Assembly: GCA_951406725.2 (NCBI GenBank)
Contig: OX597821.1
Coordinates: 52,948,001 to 53,012,000 of the forward strand
Source: Octopus vulgaris
Taxonomy: Eukaryota
Direction: 5' to 3'
DNA: 64,000 bases
Shown here: positions 8,658 through 50,075 of the stretch, in pieces
Position numbering within the stretch: the first letter of the stretch is position 1
How the letters are laid out: the number at the start of each line of letters is the position of its first letter
Notes under the pieces: model-generated
Databases searched by the model: none
Told to the model about the DNA's origin: nothing
The model's input: only the letters and a program-made list of their open reading frames with translations
Translations under genes and position numbers: made by a program

Positions 8658-10286
8658 CAGTTGCGGCCAAAATGTTCAGAACGGCATTGTTTTCGACAGA
8701 AAAGTAGGTATAATTTTTTATCAAATTTGTTTTATATTCTATAATTTTCACAGACAATGAATACAATATCATTTGTTATTATCTGAGATTTTCGTGTAAT
8801 TTGAGAGGATAATGCAAAAGTCATGGATGATTTAGGGATTTACTGCAAAACCCATGGCGGCCAAACTGATCAGAACGGTTGCTTTTACTCCGTGTTTTAG
8901 TATATTGAACCGGCGAACTCTAATGTTTTGAATTTGTTTACTTGACGGTTCGTTTACTAAACATTAGTAAGAATATCTGCAGTGTACTTTGTTTATATAA
9001 TGCCACTTACTCCGTTACAAATTCGTCAGCAGATTATTAAGCTTCGAAAGAAGGATAATTTAAGTATTGGGTATATTGCAAAGATTGTTAACAAGTCAAA
9101 AAGTGTTGTTCATGGTATACTTAAGGTCTACGATGATCGTGGTTCGTGTGAAGCAAGGAAGTCTACAGGTAGGCCAAGAAAAACGACCAAGAGAGAAGAT
9201 CGTGCTATGGTAAAGTTGGTTAAAAAGGACAGATTTAAAACTGCTGCTGCTGTTTCTTGGGAAATGAGCATTGTACTGAAGAAAACTTTATCTCGAAAAA
9301 CTGTGTCTCGTCGTTTAGTTGAACATGACCTACAAGCAAGAGCACCTGCAGTTGAAGCCACTGATCAGCTCCAAGAATAAAAAGTGTCGTCTTACCTTTG
9401 CAACCGAACATGTGTTGTGGTCTCAAGAAAAATGGCAAACGGTGCATTTCAGTGATGAATATAAGTTTATGCTATTTGGCTCAGATGGGAAAAGGTACGT
9501 TCGTCGAAAAGTAGGTGAAAAATTGTCGACTAAATGCCTTAAGACTAGTGTTAAGTTCGGTGGAGGAAGTATGGTTTGGGGGATGATATCTGGAGATGGT
9601 GTGGGCTCTTTGGTGCGATTACATGTTAAGTTAAATGCAGGAGTTTATAAACAACTTGTAAAAGATCATGTCTTGCCTGTGCTGAGGAATTCAACTAAGC
9701 GACCACCCATATTCATGCAGGACAATGCCCCATGTCACAAGGCTAAGGTGGTCATGAACTTCCTCAAGGCTGAAAAGGTTATTGTCATGGATTGGCCTGC
9801 TCAAAGCCCAGATCTCAATCCTATTGAAAATGTGTGGAATATTCTAGGGGAAAGTTCGAAAGTCAGAAATCCTAAAACAACCAAGCAATTATGGAATGCC
9901 CATCAGGAAGAAAATTGAATAAGATCACCCAGCAAGAAATTGAAAATTTAGTTTCCTCATGCAGTCTAAGATGACAAAGAGTGGTTGAAGCTAAAGGGCT
10001 TCGCGCTAAATATTAAATAATTCCAGTATACTCTGTCATTTTTGATTATTTTGTTATTTTTTCAACCATTCTGATCATTTTGGCCGCCATAGGTTTTGCA
10101 GTAAATCCCTAAATCATCCATAACTTTTGTATTATCCTCTCAAATTACACCAGAATCTCAGATAATAGCGAATAATATTGTATTTATTGTCTGTGAAAAT
10201 TATAGAATATAAAACAACTTTGATAAAAAGTTATACCTACTTTTCTGACGGAAACAATGCCGTTCTGAATATTATGACCGTCACTG
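8658..10286 (+). mobile_element. Near-full-length Tc1 family DNA transposon, IR/DR type, TA target duplication
   Basis: TIRs of about 225 bp (8658-8881 and about 10062-10286) start with CAGT. Each carries an outer and inner direct repeat (gcggccaaaatgttcagaacgg / gcggccaaactgatcagaacgg). TA flanks both ends and a transposase lies inside. Confidence 0.95.
9000..10016 (+). pseudogene. Tc1 DD34E transposase with frameshifts and a stop
   Basis: MPLTPLQIRQQII..GRPRKT (paired-like HTH), frameshift near 9350, then FSDE..MVWG..QDNAPCH..WPAQSPDLNPIENVW with 34 residues between D and E. Further lesions near 9915 and 9972; ends KY*. Confidence 0.93.
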
Positions 10287-22257: not shown

Positions 22258-23678
<1,421 letters not shown>

Positions 23679-43927: not shown

Positions 43928-44160
43928 GACGCAGTGAGCTGGCAGAAACGTTAGCACGCCGGGCGAAATGCGTGGCCGTATTTCGTCTGCCGTTACGTTC
44001 TGAGTTCAAATTCCGCCGAGGTCGACTTTGCCTTTCATCCTTTCGGGGTCGATAAATTATGTACCAGTTGCGCACTGGGGTCGATATAATCGACTTAATC
44101 CGTTTGTCTGTCCTTGTTTGTCCTCTCTGTGTTTAGCCCCTTGTGGGTAGTAAAGAAATA
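43928..44160 (+). mobile_element. tRNA-derived SINE family B, full length
   Basis: A-box-like tggcagaaacgttag, B-box gagttcaaattcc, and central gtcgactttgcctttcatcctttcggggtcgataaa domain. Confidence 0.88.
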
Positions 44161-44174
44161 TATATATATATATA

Positions 44175-44583
44175 GACGCAGGCGTGACAGTAGGGTGAGA
44201 AATTTGCTTCTCAATCACACGGTCCCATGTTCAGTCCCAGTCTGTCGCACTTTCTATTTTCTACTATAGCTTCAAGCCGACCAAAGTCTTGACAGTGGTA
44301 GACGGAAATCGAAAGAAGCCCGCCGTATATATATATATATATATAATATGTGTGTGTGTGTATGTATGTATTTCTGCATGTATTCGTGTATGTGTGTTTG
44401 TTCACCCCGCCATCGCTTGACAATCGTTGCTGGTATGTTTACGTCCCCGTCACTTAGCTGTTCGGCAAGAGTCAGAGAGAATAAGTACTAGAATTATAAA
44501 GAATTAGCCCTGGGGTCGATTTATACGACTGAAGGCGGTGCTCTGCAGTCACATGTCTGAAACTTATAAAAGAGTAAAAGAGT
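44175..44583 (+). mobile_element. SINE family A, diverged
   Basis: Colinear with the other copies; aaaagagtaaaagagt tail. Confidence 0.82.
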
Positions 44584-44625
44584 GTGTGTGTATATATATA
44601 TATGTATGTATGTATGAATGTATAT

Positions 44626-45028
44626 CAGGCACGTACCGTTAGAAATTACTCAGGGAAGGTAGTTGGTGACTTTTATGTAGTAAAACACGCAAAAAGCTAA
44701 GCGAAACAGGTGTGCGACTGAGTTGGAGGCAGAATTACTTCTGCATTTTATCACGTAAAGAAAAGCTTGTAGGAATGTACGCAGCATGTGTACCACAGCA
44801 GTACTATACGTAGTTTTAATCCTGAAATTGAAAGGCAGGGGTGAATTATGCTTACCTAATCTACAAAAAAATATATATGCTACTTTGCATTTTATGCATA
44901 AAAATCAGAGTAACCGTCATAATTTTATTGGATTATGTGCATAATTTGACACAAAAATAGAATGTTATTATCGATCTGTTTTATTCAGGGTAGGCACTGC
45001 CTATCTTGCCTACCCAATCGTCACGCCC

Positions 45029-45031
<3 letters not shown>
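44626..45031. mobile_element. Possible MITE with short imperfect TIRs
   Basis: tat|caggcacgtac ... gtcacgcccctg|ata, with a subterminal taggca..tgccta hairpin. Confidence 0.4.
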
Positions 45032-45081
<50 letters not shown>

Positions 45082-45926
45082 AGAGAGAGAGAGAGAGAGA
45101 AGTTAATGGATAGATAGATAGATAAATAGATCGGCAGATAGATAGATAGAAATGTTTGTGTGTATTTTTAAAGCTAAGAGGTGACACACGAGTGAATTTA
45201 TATTAAAAGCAAAAAGAAAATGGTTCGAGAACTTTATCAGGCATAAAAATAAGAAAGTATTTAAAACCCATATCAAAATATCTCCTACAGGTTTCAATCT
45301 CTTTACAAATGTAAATATATCCTTATATATCATATATTATCCATGATAAATATCTCAAAACATTTTCCTCTGTAGTTGCTTCATAGGTACGTGGGTGAGA
45401 GAGAAAATGTGGGTGTGTGCGTTGGGGGTGGGGAGGAAAAATGCGTGCGTGTGTCTGTGTATGTAGAGCAGTATTATATTTGTGTAGCGGAGTTAATTTC
45501 AACTAATCATGACATCATTTAATATACTAATATACTCTTCGAAAACAGTACAAGGCAATGTGTGAGCGATAGAAAGAGGGGAAAAGAGAGAGGGGTGAGA
45601 TAGAGGGAGAGAGAGAGAAAGAAAGAGAGAGACAGACATGGAAGAAGAGAGTGTGTGTTGGGAGAAAGAAAGGGTGATAGTGTGGATGAGCGAGAGAGAG
45701 AGAGAGAGGAGTGGGTGAGAGGGGGATGTAGTGTAGTGATGTCACATTCTTTCAATATGTATACATATTCCTCCTTTCTTTTTCAAATTCTCTATCAGTT
45801 TTAAGCTTTCAGAATTCTACACTCTACATTTCTCTTTACTCTCGATTGCATCTTTCGATACTCAGCTTTACTTTCTTTCACTTTTCTCTCTCTCTCTCTC
45901 TTGCCTTTCTTTCTCGCCTCTTCCTC

Positions 45927-46036
45927 TATTGAGATACAGACGTGGCATTATTGAGACACAGGGGTAGCCTTATTGAGACACAGAGGTAGCCGTATTGAGA
46001 TACAGAGGTAGCCATATAGAGATACAGAGGTAGCCC
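45927..46036. repeat. 22-bp minisatellite, five copies
   Basis: tattgagaYacagaggtagccN repeated. Confidence 0.9.
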
Positions 46037-46707
46037 ATCATTACTTCCACCATCACCATTTATCTTTCTCTGTTATTTATCGCACACTTCCTTTATTTCT
46101 ATCTCTCTATTGATACCAATTTCCGCCCCAAATATTTTTCCCTTTCCTGTCTAATCACACTGTCTAGTTACTTTGTTAAATGTTCTTCTTTCTCTCTCTC
46201 TCACAGTTTCTCTCCATCCATCTCCATTTAAGATTATCAATGTCAACATAACAGCGGCCACCCGAGGTACGCCAATAATATGACGACTAAGTCGTCATTC
46301 AGTTATTTCATTTAGCGTACACAGAAGGTAGGTAACGCTGCCACACTCTCTCTCTCTGTACATATATTTGTGTGTTTTTATATATGTGTATATATACAAA
46401 TATGTTTGCGTGTGCATATATACATACATATATAGAAATACATACAAACATATACATACATACTTACTTATATGTATATATATATATATATAGCAATAAT
46501 AATTCTCTAAAAGGGATATAGACAGTAACTGCTCGATAACATAAGGGACTAAAGCCATCTGAATATGGCTAGGGACAGGGCAGGGTGGTGGGGGTGTTAC
46601 TGTTGCATTTAGCCCCAGGCGAACATCGACGTCACCAGAAAGGCTCGACACCGTCACGGTGCCCTAAACCTGCAAAGGGAGGTAATTCCCCGATGAAGCG
46701 GAAACCA

Positions 46708-46753
46708 CACACGGACCATGGTTTCAAGGTGTATTGCCTATTATCGGCGTGTG
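46708..46753 (-). ncRNA. Hammerhead motif, copy 1 (core CCGAUAA, G8A)
   Basis: cacacg-CCGATAA-t agg..cct t-GAAA-ccatgg-TC-cgtgtg. Confidence 0.65.
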
Positions 46754-47066
46754 GTAGGCCTCCGCTTCCTCGACGAATTCTCACTATGCAGGATTTCTTA
46801 TATAGATTTTCAAGCAAAATACATTTGCTGATTTCGAAAATCTGTTCGAAAGCAATAATAATTCTCTAAAAGGGATATAGACAGTAACTGCTCGATAACA
46901 TAAGGGACTAAAGCCATCTGAATATGGCTAGGGACAGGGCAGGGTGGTGGGGGTGTTACTGTTGCATTTAGCCCCAGGCGAACATCGACGTCACCAGAAA
47001 GGCTCGACACCGTCACGGTGCCCTAAACCTGCAAAGGGAGGTAATTCCCCGATGAAGCGGAAACCA

Positions 47067-47112
47067 CACACGGACCATGGTTTCAAGGTGTATTGCCTAT
47101 TATCGGCGTGTG
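47067..47112 (-). ncRNA. Hammerhead motif, copy 2 (core CCGAUAA, G8A)
   Basis: Identical to copy 1. Confidence 0.65.
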
Positions 47113-47425
47113 GTAGGCCTCCGCTTCCTCGACGAATTCTCACTATGCAGGATTTCTTATATAGATTTTCAAGCAAAATACATTTGCTGATTTCGAAAAT
47201 CTGTTCGAATGCAATAATAATTCTCTAAAAGGGATATAGACAGTAACTGCTCGATAACATAAGGGACTAAAGCCATCTGAATATGGCTAGGGACAGGGCA
47301 GGGTGGTGGGGGTGTTACTGTTGCATTTAGCCCCAGGCGAACATCGACGTCACCAGAAAGGCTCGACACCGTCACGGTGCCCTAAACCTGCAAAGGGAGG
47401 TAATTCCCCGATGAAGCGGAAACCA

Positions 47426-47471
47426 CACACGGACCATGGTTTCAAGGTGTATTGCCTATCATCGGCGTGTG
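47426..47471 (-). ncRNA. Hammerhead motif, copy 3 (core CCGAUGA)
   Basis: cacacg-CCGATGA-t agg caataca cct t-GAAA-ccatgg-TC-cgtgtg. Confidence 0.78.
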
Positions 47472-47843
47472 GTAGGCCTCCGCTTCCTCGACGAATTCTC
47501 ACTATGCAGGATTTCTTATATAGATTTTCAAGCAAAATACATTTGCTGATTTCGAAAATCTGTTCGAAAGCAATAATAATTCTCTAAAAGGGATATAGAC
47601 AGTAACTGCTCGATAACATAAGGGACTAAAGCCATCTGAATATGGCTAGGGACAGGGCAGGGTGGTGGGGGTGTTACTGTTGCATTTAGTCCCTTATGTT
47701 ATCGAGCAGTTACTGTCTATATCCCTTTTAGAGAATTATTATTGCTTTCGAACAGATTTTCGAAATCAGCAAATGTATTTTGCTTGAAAATCTATATAAG
47801 AAATCCTGCATAGTGAGAATTCGTCGAGGAAGCGGAGGCCTAC

Positions 47844-47889
47844 CACACGCCGATGATAGGCAATACACCTTGAAACCATGGTCCGTGTG
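47844..47889 (+). ncRNA. Hammerhead motif in the inverted copy (core CCGAUGA)
   Basis: Core 47850-47856, GAAA 47872-47875, palindrome ccatgg, predicted cleavage after C47883. Stem I is extended by gaagcgga/tccgcttc. Confidence 0.78.
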
Positions 47890-48050
47890 TGGTTTCCGCT
47901 TCATCGGGGAATTACCTCCCTTTGCAGGTTTAGGGCACCGTGACGGTGTCGAGCCTTTCTGGTGACGTCGATGTTCGCCTGGGGCTAAATGCAACAGTAA
48001 CACCCCCACCACCCTGCCCTGTCCCTAGCCATATTCAGATGGCTTTAGTC

Positions 48051-48122
<72 letters not shown>

Positions 48123-48550
48123 GGAGAATTCACAAAAAAAGGAAACGGCCTGATTAGAAAGTGCGAGAATTTTAATAGTGAATGAGAAGTTGTATAATTG
48201 TATGAAATTCAAAATTTTACTATTAAGCAAATTTGGAAGCGTTGTTCTTCGGCAATTTTTTTTAATATTTATTACTACAGAACGAAGTATTAGGTAGGTG
48301 TACGTGTGTGCTACGCTCTTGCATTTGTGCGTTTATATCCAATTAGTATATGTGTTAATTGTTTCCAGTGTCATCTCTTAGAGTATGCTTTGCATATCTT
48401 CTTGTGAGTCTTTCTCTTTCCAAATGCACGTTGTGTGTGTATTTGAGCGTGTCAGCAAGCATATATTACACTGAACAACAAACTTGCTACTGGGGTGAGA
48501 GCATGTCTTTTACACTAAATCTAGGACGCTGATTCCGAATCCACGCTCAA

Positions 48551-48615
<65 letters not shown>

Positions 48616-49320
48616 CAACAACAACATCGAAAAATACCTTAGAAATAAGAATCCAAGTTGAGTTGTATGTATGTGATTGTATCATTTAATATGTATATAT
48701 GAGATACTTCCCCCTCTTTTTATTTACAACACTGTCTAAAAGAAAAAAATTCAAAGTTGGTTTCATCTAGATTTGAAATCAGAATGTAGAACGACGTATC
48801 TAACACGGCCATCACATCAAATCCGTTACTATTTCGGCTTAAACGCTGTCGATAAACACATTTTTCTGTCCAAGACATATGCATACTGGATATTTATACA
48901 TTTGACCTTCAATGGTGACATATACTATAAAGATATATGCGATTGGCATATTGCCTTTGGAGAAACACTCACAAATAATTACAAGAAAAGCTGAAGTTGA
49001 CCGGTTCATAGCAAAATTTGAATAAATTTTCTTGGAAACATGTACACTATAAGAATTATTTAAATATAAGTATGTCTGTGTGAATATGTTTTTATTTGTT
49101 TATATATGTATATGTATCAATGTAAACATACAAAACCGCTCACACATAGGTACGCAGGATTCGACTCAGCAAGGTTTTTTTCAACCTGTTACTTACATGT
49201 TATTTCTAACTTTATACGTACATCGAGATCCAGTTCTACGCGCGTGCGCACACACATACACATTGTATATATACTTATAGGGTGAGCAAAAGTGTACGTA
49301 CGCCGCTATATGTTTTTTTT

Positions 49321-49734
49321 TACTCTTTTTTACTCTTTTTACCTGTTTCAGTCATTTGACTGCGGCCATGCTGGAGCACCGCCTTTAGTCGAGAAAATCG
49401 ACCCCGGGACTTATTCTTTGTAAGCCCAGTACTTATTCTATCGGTCTCTTTTGCCGAACCGCTAAGTTACGGGGACGTAAACACACCAGCATCGGTTGTC
49501 AAGCAATGCTAGGGGAACAAACACAGACACACAAACATATTCACACACACTTATATATATATACATATATACGACAGGCTTCTTTCAGTTTTCGTCTACC
49601 AAATCCACTTACAAGGCATTGGTCGGCCCGGGGCTATAGCAGAAGACACTTGCCCAAGATGCCACGCAGTGGGACTGAACTCGGAACCATGTGGTTGGTT
49701 AGCAAGCTACTTACCAAACAGCCACTCCTGCGCC
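49321..49734 (-). mobile_element. SINE family A, full length, young
   Basis: Very similar to 12451-12852. Confidence 0.9.
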
Positions 49735-49744
49735 TGTATATATA

Positions 49745-50075
49745 AATCCCAAAAAATGGAACAAGAACGCGGCAGACGAGAATAAAACATCGACATAGAC
49801 GATGCAAAGACGAACAGGAAAAACTACAAAACGACGGAGAGGAAAAAAACAAGGACGGGTCATTCACAGCCTTCTCTCATCAGTTAAGTTTGTGACCAGT
49901 CAGATTTGAACAGTCTCAAGTGTAACCGGCTGAAACTGTAAAGATAATCTGGAAATTTGTCTGATGAGAGAAGGCTGCGAATGACTCGTCCTTGTTTTTC
50001 CCTGTCCGTCTTTGTATCGTCTATTTGTCCGGATATTTTATTGTCATCTGTTGCGTTCTTGCTTCATTTTTGGAC
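49745..50075. repeat. Diverged inverted repeat, PLE pLTR-like
   Basis: ccaaaaaatggaacaagaacgc / gcgttcttgcttcatttttgg and aacaaggacgggtcattcacagccttctctcatcag / ctgatgagagaaggctgcgaatgactcgtccttgtt. Confidence 0.7.

Follow-up and report, generated by a model that had tools for sequence, protein, structure and literature searches.

The closest described relatives of the element reported here are the animal non-LTR retrozymes and the Penelope-like elements (PLEs). Non-LTR retrozymes include the 350-390-bp repeats of Mytilus and the Rtz_353 repeats of the axolotl (Cervera and de la Pena 2020, PMC7229834), and the same work names PLEs merely as a strong candidate for moving retrozymes. Drawing on co-occurrence and on homology to pLTRs, a preprint on Xenopus (bioRxiv 10.64898/2026.07.22.740005) regards retrozymes as non-autonomous PLE derivatives and suggests that they amplify locally. 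The entry of animal retrozymes into new loci is still a hypothesis in both accounts. PLEs carry a tail of 30-40 bp, often at one end only, and form 5' inverted copies; Craig et al. (2021, PMC8557442) see the tail as a product of endonuclease resolution. Frangieh et al. (2024, PMC11167929) describe it as the stretch between two reverse transcriptase (RT) start sites, with both target strands cut and extended at AT-rich sites. In that study the PLE protein is predicted to be dimeric, hammerhead cleavage is protein-assisted and dispensable for insertion in vitro, and unprocessed RNA is the main substrate of the Anolis PLE. The minimal hammerhead ribozyme (HHR) of PLE pLTRs has no helix III, a helix I of 4-5 bp and a helix II of 7-8 bp (PMC4209133). 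Our literature search found neither a cephalopod retrozyme nor strict tail pairing in retrozymes, and the supplementary tables of the retrozyme paper and the preprint could list cephalopod families. Ribozymes and hammerheads go unmentioned in the main text of the Octopus vulgaris repeat annotation (PMC13282606).

We analysed a 64,000-nucleotide stretch of Octopus vulgaris DNA, henceforth referred to as the window. A preliminary description had reported three full units and one partial unit of a 359-bp array, followed by an inverted unit plus 13 bp, all within (TA)n. Tandem-repeat analysis recovered the array at 46492-47693 (period 359, 3.3 copies, 99% matches), and the inverted arm was found at 47685-48056, with 372 nt that are 100% complementary to the array. 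TA repeats flank the array on both sides, at 46475-46491 and 48054-48119. The exact left arm (3.34 units) spans 46492-47689, so the two arms have in common a 5-nt overlap (47685-47689) at the inversion junction. Array units 1 and 2 are identical, and unit 3 departs from them at two unit positions, 1 and 251; the sequence of the right arm (1.04 units) is identical to the array's last 372-bp register. The hammerhead strand is the minus strand in the array and the plus strand in the inverted arm, and the RNA sense therefore points outward in both arms. The outer end of the left arm lies at start site A (unit position 1) and bears a 44-nt tail (46492-46535, minus strand), a predicted stem-loop that is found on this outer end only. 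The outer end of the right arm, without the tail, lies at start site B, here at unit position 50 versus position 45 in most copies. The longest stop-free, ATG-independent frame within the units is 98 aa, which agrees with the earlier reading that no credible protein is present. We detected no PLE frame (RT/GIY-YIG) in the 64-kb window and no LTR arrangement at the window array or the mapped loci described below. Elsewhere in the window, a 22-bp minisatellite at 45927-46035 (5 copies, 88%) is unrelated to the array, and two frames at 8961-9918 and 22345-22833 (both plus strand) are, from their translations, what we take to be Tc1/mariner-like transposases.

The hammerhead motif is best displayed in the right arm (47844-47889, plus strand). 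It has the claimed type-I layout: a 6-bp stem I, the sequence CCGAUGA, a U.U mismatch and a 3-bp stem II, GAAA, a 2-bp helix III closed by a palindromic tetraloop (palindrome ACCAUGGU), and a GUC ending at 47883, after which the cut is predicted. The motif sits at the tip of a long hairpin (47806-47928, plus strand) whose base covaries in a sister family (family B). The fold of one unit is stronger than that of 100/100 shuffled sequences, with z scores of -5.3 for the hammerhead strand and -2.8 for its complement. Every window copy has the core CCGAUGA, a U4C change from CUGAUGA. The motifs of units 1 and 2 (46708-46753 and 47067-47112, minus strand) carry an additional G8A change, at 46742 and 47101, that is present in only these two places genome-wide, and they are predicted to be inactive. 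The motif of unit 3 (47426-47471, minus strand) has the U4C core typical of the family. The preliminary description had assigned one type-I hammerhead to each full unit; the motif does occur in every unit, but an otherwise intact core is restricted to unit 3 and the inverted arm (two of the four window motifs). The motif is of the canonical type, with a 6-bp helix I, a 3-bp helix II and a 2-bp helix III with a palindromic loop, and differs from the minimal PLE hammerhead as defined in PMC4209133.

A search of positions 44000-50000 against Rfam gave no hammerhead match at E ≤ 1. The U10.1-U11.1 mismatch is a known tolerated one, and U4C considerably lowers hammerhead activity in vitro although one viroid tolerates it (PMC3088659). 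Folding predictions give the monomer hammerhead -3.4 kcal/mol versus -10.8 kcal/mol for a competing fold in which the core is trapped, and -12.6 kcal/mol for the 8-bp palindrome duplex that forms the dimer helix. The U4C core would slow cleavage, which probably would need dimer folding or a protein. Each unit also has a hammerhead-like motif on the opposite strand, for example at 46690-46771 of the window (plus strand), with CCGAUGA, a 4-nt loop II, GAAA, a 7-bp stem III and a GUA site. We considered a two-polarity, viroid-like pair of ribozymes and rejected it, as the opposite-strand motif lacks GAAA in sister family C and is absent from family B; the motif is probably a by-product of the long hairpin.

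We searched the genome with the unit and obtained at least 266 matches on many contigs from the best 40 of 648 candidates, and the matches listed were 99-100% identical. The exact 30-mer of the hammerhead occurs 799 times genome-wide, and the first 100 listed among these exact matches all have the U4C and G8 core. The unit is therefore not confined to a single locus, and the suggestion that it is a young, dispersed, non-coding element of the retrozyme type is upheld by this identity and copy number. We mapped 63 loci, comprising 36 from the unit search, all 18 loci of one contig (C1) from the 30-mer search, 5 of which were already among those mapped, further ones, and the window; this sample is biased to long, young copies. 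The mapped loci hold 0.8-23 units of 359/360 bp (median 3.6), in arms of 0.1-15 units. Private single-unit substitutions number 75 in 114,279 aligned bases (0.07% private divergence), and family-typical intact cores were found in 290 of 292 matched. At least half of the unit's words are present in 20 public sequencing runs (8 studies, five organisms). An A-to-I editing signature was looked for and rejected: of 106 distinct alleles, only 12 are RNA-sense A>G, fewer than are C>U, G>A or U>C. We are confident that the window array is one insertion of a young, dispersed, non-coding, hammerhead-bearing repeat of 359/360 bp (family A) that was likely copied into (TA)n by a PLE RT/GIY-YIG enzyme.

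The outer ends of the insertions are concentrated at two sites. Of the 110 outer ends at the 63 loci, unit position 1 (A) accounts for 41 and position 45 (B) for 48; 89 of the 110 are thus exactly at one of these positions, and 104 fall within positions 1-16 or 37-60. The preliminary description predicted variable, circularly permuted ends, but only the inner junctions vary. Sites A and B are 44 nt apart, and in family A the intervening 44 nt are predicted to form one stem-loop; in the copy of family B that we tested, the tail region folds differently. Just upstream of site B is a 6-bp hairpin (48027-48044 in the window, plus strand) that is kept in the sister families, with one compensatory pair. 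Genome-wide, junctions with TA repeats comprise 221 of type A and 530 of type B, and the latter imply at least about 530 insertions. Many insertions are too short to reach the hammerhead.

The two kinds of ends are strictly paired. Inverted loci make up 47 of the 63, of which 42 are A+B, none is A+A or B+B, and 5 have one damaged end, so every classifiable inverted insertion (42 of 42) combines an A end with a B end. The same holds for six additional inverted loci and for 20 of 20 facing pairs no more than 10 kb apart among the A (39) and B (100) junctions listed first, a set that overlaps with the mapped loci. Among the 16 non-inverted loci, 11 have B alone and 4 have A alone. Target duplications of 12-13 bp were seen at three loci (L048, L050 and L178) and more weakly at a fourth (L177); they are visible only in targets that are not pure TA and are unreadable in pure TA runs. 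The inner ends are evenly spread over the unit (chi-square P=0.11). We rejected the idea that the RT stops at the cut site, since only 4 of 110 inner ends lie at the predicted cut (positions 220-224) versus 1.5 expected, which is not a significant enrichment (P=0.07).

Fixed ends at two sites, with one of each per inverted insertion, are the PLE "tail" signature. Together with the 44-nt tail, the TA target and the 12-13-bp duplications, they sustain the proposal that a PLE enzyme moves the unit, and the evidence for such an enzyme is much stronger than in the first reading. The genome contains 6136 GIY-YIG candidates, and among the best 150, which were scored, are many PLE frames with confirmed RT and GIY-YIG domains. 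In a young coding PLE family with 781-aa frames, the ends fall on two sites within TA runs that are separated by 40 nt, and L132, L134 and L109 each have one end of each kind. Another PLE (L143, 2812-5992) has a 5' inversion and a hammerhead with both U4C and U.U, and only one of its arms bears a tail, of 35 nt. The 781-aa family and the L143 element have a CX4CXXC linker, like the Neptune/Nematis motif (PMC8557442). Copies of the young Neptune/Nematis-like family were seen at L127-L142, with many 781-aa frames, 40-nt tails, TA targets and a long AC-rich 5' region, and a complex 67-99-bp satellite adjoins one PLE copy (L130, 6899-7874).

A coding partner was sought in several ways. No PLE frame adjoins or joins any of the 63 loci, which speaks against the unit being merely the pLTR of an adjacent coding PLE; PLE frames within 10 kb of L038, L050, L064, L183 and L185 were considered as partners and rejected as not joined to the arrays. 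Comparison of the unit by BLAST and nhmmer with 50 GIY-YIG loci (from the best 150 of 6136 candidates scored) identified no coding PLE that shares DNA with it, and the only matches were separate non-coding sister copies. Searches with a canonical-core version of the hammerhead gave 0 matches, and searches with the same stem I and another palindrome gave 1, a family-B mutant.

The sister families have units of about 360 bp, and the families are about 67% alike. Family B is older (best 40 of 2591 candidates, about 90% identical among themselves) and its non-coding units, arranged head to tail, have the same tail end, a canonical CUGAUGA core, stem II GGG/CCC and the palindrome ACUCGAGU; one example is at L143, 6590-6818. 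Family C is a single diverged copy (L032, 130-545) that lies 350 bp away from an array of family A and whose hammerhead is damaged. Family D is also a single copy (L226, 7437-7990, contig C13), with a period of 360, a U3-A8 core and the palindrome ACAUGU. Its core and palindrome are the same as in the hammerhead of the 781-aa coding PLE family, and family D might therefore point to the clade of the partner. The tail of families A, B and D is followed by a short spacer and then by the next hammerhead. When copies of families A (2), B (4) and C (1) were placed in a structure alignment, pairing held in 122 of 130 cells and 4 pairs had changed on both sides, although three families provide few independent events and stem I of the C copy aligns poorly. 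The alignment indicates that the hammerhead fold is kept across the sister families by compensatory changes. The contig region with family D also contains another tandem element with a period of 594 and an inverted partial copy (L226, 4968-6811), which may be a further PLE-type non-coding family, and LTR-retrotransposon-like frames (L226, 915-4090).

Taken as a whole, the data are very probably best explained by PLE-driven insertion of the 359/360-bp hammerhead repeat into (TA)n. A PLE enzyme, probably dimeric, would nick both target strands about 12-13 bp apart, and two cDNAs would be primed, one from each side of the tail stem-loop. Each would run a variable distance through the repeat before the far ends are joined, yielding a head-to-head array in one step; where only one long cDNA is made, the product would be a plain array or a short fragment. 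The preliminary picture of an inverted terminal unit would thus be replaced by two separate cDNAs, each potentially many units long. The retrozyme-like unit is likely a parasite of the PLE enzyme, inserted as a ready-made array.

Less certain is the form of the RNA that is copied. One locus has the variant 279G in 13 of 13 units, across both arms, and no other place in the genome has it; L057, L059, L060, L061, L181 and L183 each have one variant fixed in all of the 4-11 covered units. The variant 279C was found in 4 places genome-wide, and the other fixed variants were surveyed in the mapped loci. A variant fixed through a whole insertion favours a circular template, and we also counted for the circle that array length is large for a family that truncates. 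However, in nine mosaic arrays (the window, L032, L034, L038, L046, L050, L054, L197 and the C6 array) a variant is present in several but not all units. A monomer circle is therefore not the sole template, and multimeric RNA or later shuffling is needed. Both arms repeat the mosaic pattern in L050, L197 and the C6 array. In L050 the switch between variants lies away from the cut site, and the 8 other loci that have this junction yielded no mosaic donor. Multimeric RNA, fold-back or arm-to-arm conversion, and local unit duplication can each explain part of the mosaics. Contigs of 4 of 4 presumed-RNA runs (3 studies) cross the unit joint, as expected alike from a circle, a multimer or DNA. One contig end, at 47823 and not at the cut site, resembles what we take to be a template-switch oligo, suggesting a cDNA library and RNA of the hammerhead strand. 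In Xenopus, 8 of 9 tested retrozyme dimers failed to cleave (bioRxiv 10.64898/2026.07.22.740005). We lean slightly towards a monomer circle as the usual template, which could arise if read-through transcripts are cut by hammerheads acting as dimers and then ligated by the host; the mosaic arrays could then derive from uncut multimeric RNA or from later shuffling of units.

The alternative that survives best retains PLE insertion and holds that the template is always an uncut, linear read-through transcript. The U4C hammerhead would be nearly dead, no circle would form, and arrays would grow by template jumps or by insertion into their own tail. The ordered mosaic patterns common to both arms in L050, L197 and the C6 array are consistent with such a template, as are the weak monomer fold, the lowered activity of U4C hammerheads (PMC3088659) and the preference of the Anolis PLE for unprocessed RNA (PMC11167929). 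Linear copying alone would nonetheless shorten arrays, yet arms reach 15 units and loci reach 23. Moreover, no array in the assembly could have donated the variant that is fixed in 13 of 13 units, the cores are almost all family-intact and the fold covaries across families. We consider an exclusively linear template unlikely, if still a serious contender.

A second alternative concerns the inverted arm, which might be a fold-back copy of the first cDNA, or the result of later arm conversion, trimmed by the endonuclease at the other site. In the window, L032, L050 and L197, the variants of the shorter arm mirror those of the longer arm's inner part, and the attribution of the tail to endonuclease resolution (PMC8557442) would fit with such trimming. 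On the other hand, the distance between the junction and the odd unit of the C6 array is 1.0 kb for one arm and 3.5 kb for the other, and the unit is in register from the outer ends instead. There is no correlation between the inner ends of one arm and those of the other (12 of 48 lie within 45 nt, against 12.2 expected), each end type also occurs alone at non-inverted loci, and both sites are RT starts in vitro (PMC11167929). This makes a fold-back origin improbable, and two independently primed cDNAs remain our preferred account of the arms.

It is more doubtful still that the unit is the pLTR of a coding PLE that inserts as single copies and expands locally by unequal crossing-over, as in the Xenopus preprint (bioRxiv 10.64898/2026.07.22.740005). 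Adjacent units do share a private change (window units 1-2; L034, L046 and L054), and a coding parent may exist, given that the best 150 of the 6136 GIY-YIG candidates were scored. Yet 0 of 63 loci continue into a PLE frame, and in families A, B and D the spacer and the next hammerhead follow the tail. Each arm is a multimer whose outer end is exact, and the 0.07% private divergence leaves little time to fix a variant across the inversion. Finally, an assembly artefact is hardly credible: the window's inversion junction is unbridged in contigs of four DNA runs (contigs collapse repeats, so this proves nothing) and its two adjacent units share a change absent elsewhere, but junctions, arm lengths and variants differ per locus while one end rule applies throughout, and the unit-to-unit joints are present in contigs of other runs.

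More speculatively, a dimeric PLE enzyme might hold one ribozyme-made circle and roll two RTs from two obligately different starts, producing the palindromic multimer in one step, with the slow U4C core kept so that circles survive. The insertions would then be a record of rolling-circle retrotransposition, a proposal that we advance tentatively, at somewhat less than even odds. If true, it accounts for the PLE tail and for the spread of animal retrozymes. The strict rule of one tail and one tailless end constrains the PLE mechanism itself, and a young, abundant family with single-base markers makes the choice between circle and linear template directly testable.

We compared the 359-bp family with the known systems. 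Like the non-LTR retrozymes of PMC7229834, it has a tandem unit within 150-450 bp that is non-coding, with GC <50% and duplications >4 bp, and it has one canonical type-I hammerhead per unit with a palindromic loop III; the axolotl HHR_Amex2 likewise has U.U at the base of helix II. It differs from them in that its core is fixed as U4C, and its insertions show PLE tails and head-to-head arms that are not described in the portion of that work consulted. Like PLEs, especially Poseidon_Ac (PMC11167929) and the Neptune/Nematis-type elements of this genome, it has two RT starts bounding a tail and AT-rich or (TA)n targets. A 5'-truncated inverted second copy and a hammerhead upstream of the start sites are further features in common with Poseidon_Ac and the coding PLEs. 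Unlike coding PLEs, the unit has no ORF, and its tail is 44 nt versus 35 and 40 nt in the two coding families measured; we found no DNA homology between the unit and those two families. The non-autonomous Chlamys PLEs, such as MRC1, belong to a clade reported to be without canonical hammerheads (PMC8557442), whereas the unit keeps one, and they resemble their autonomous partner at the 3' end, whereas no partner was found for the 359-bp unit. The family is thus not a new class of element: its sequence features are those of a non-LTR retrozyme, and its insertions appear to behave like those of a non-autonomous PLE. It resembles the Xenopus retrozymes (bioRxiv 10.64898/2026.07.22.740005), which are likewise proposed to be non-autonomous PLE derivatives with tandem type-I hammerheads. 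In contrast to that preprint, in whose consulted text the word "tail" is absent, the insertion footprints here point to arrays delivered whole, and the 359-bp family provides insertion-level evidence for such delivery by a PLE enzyme.
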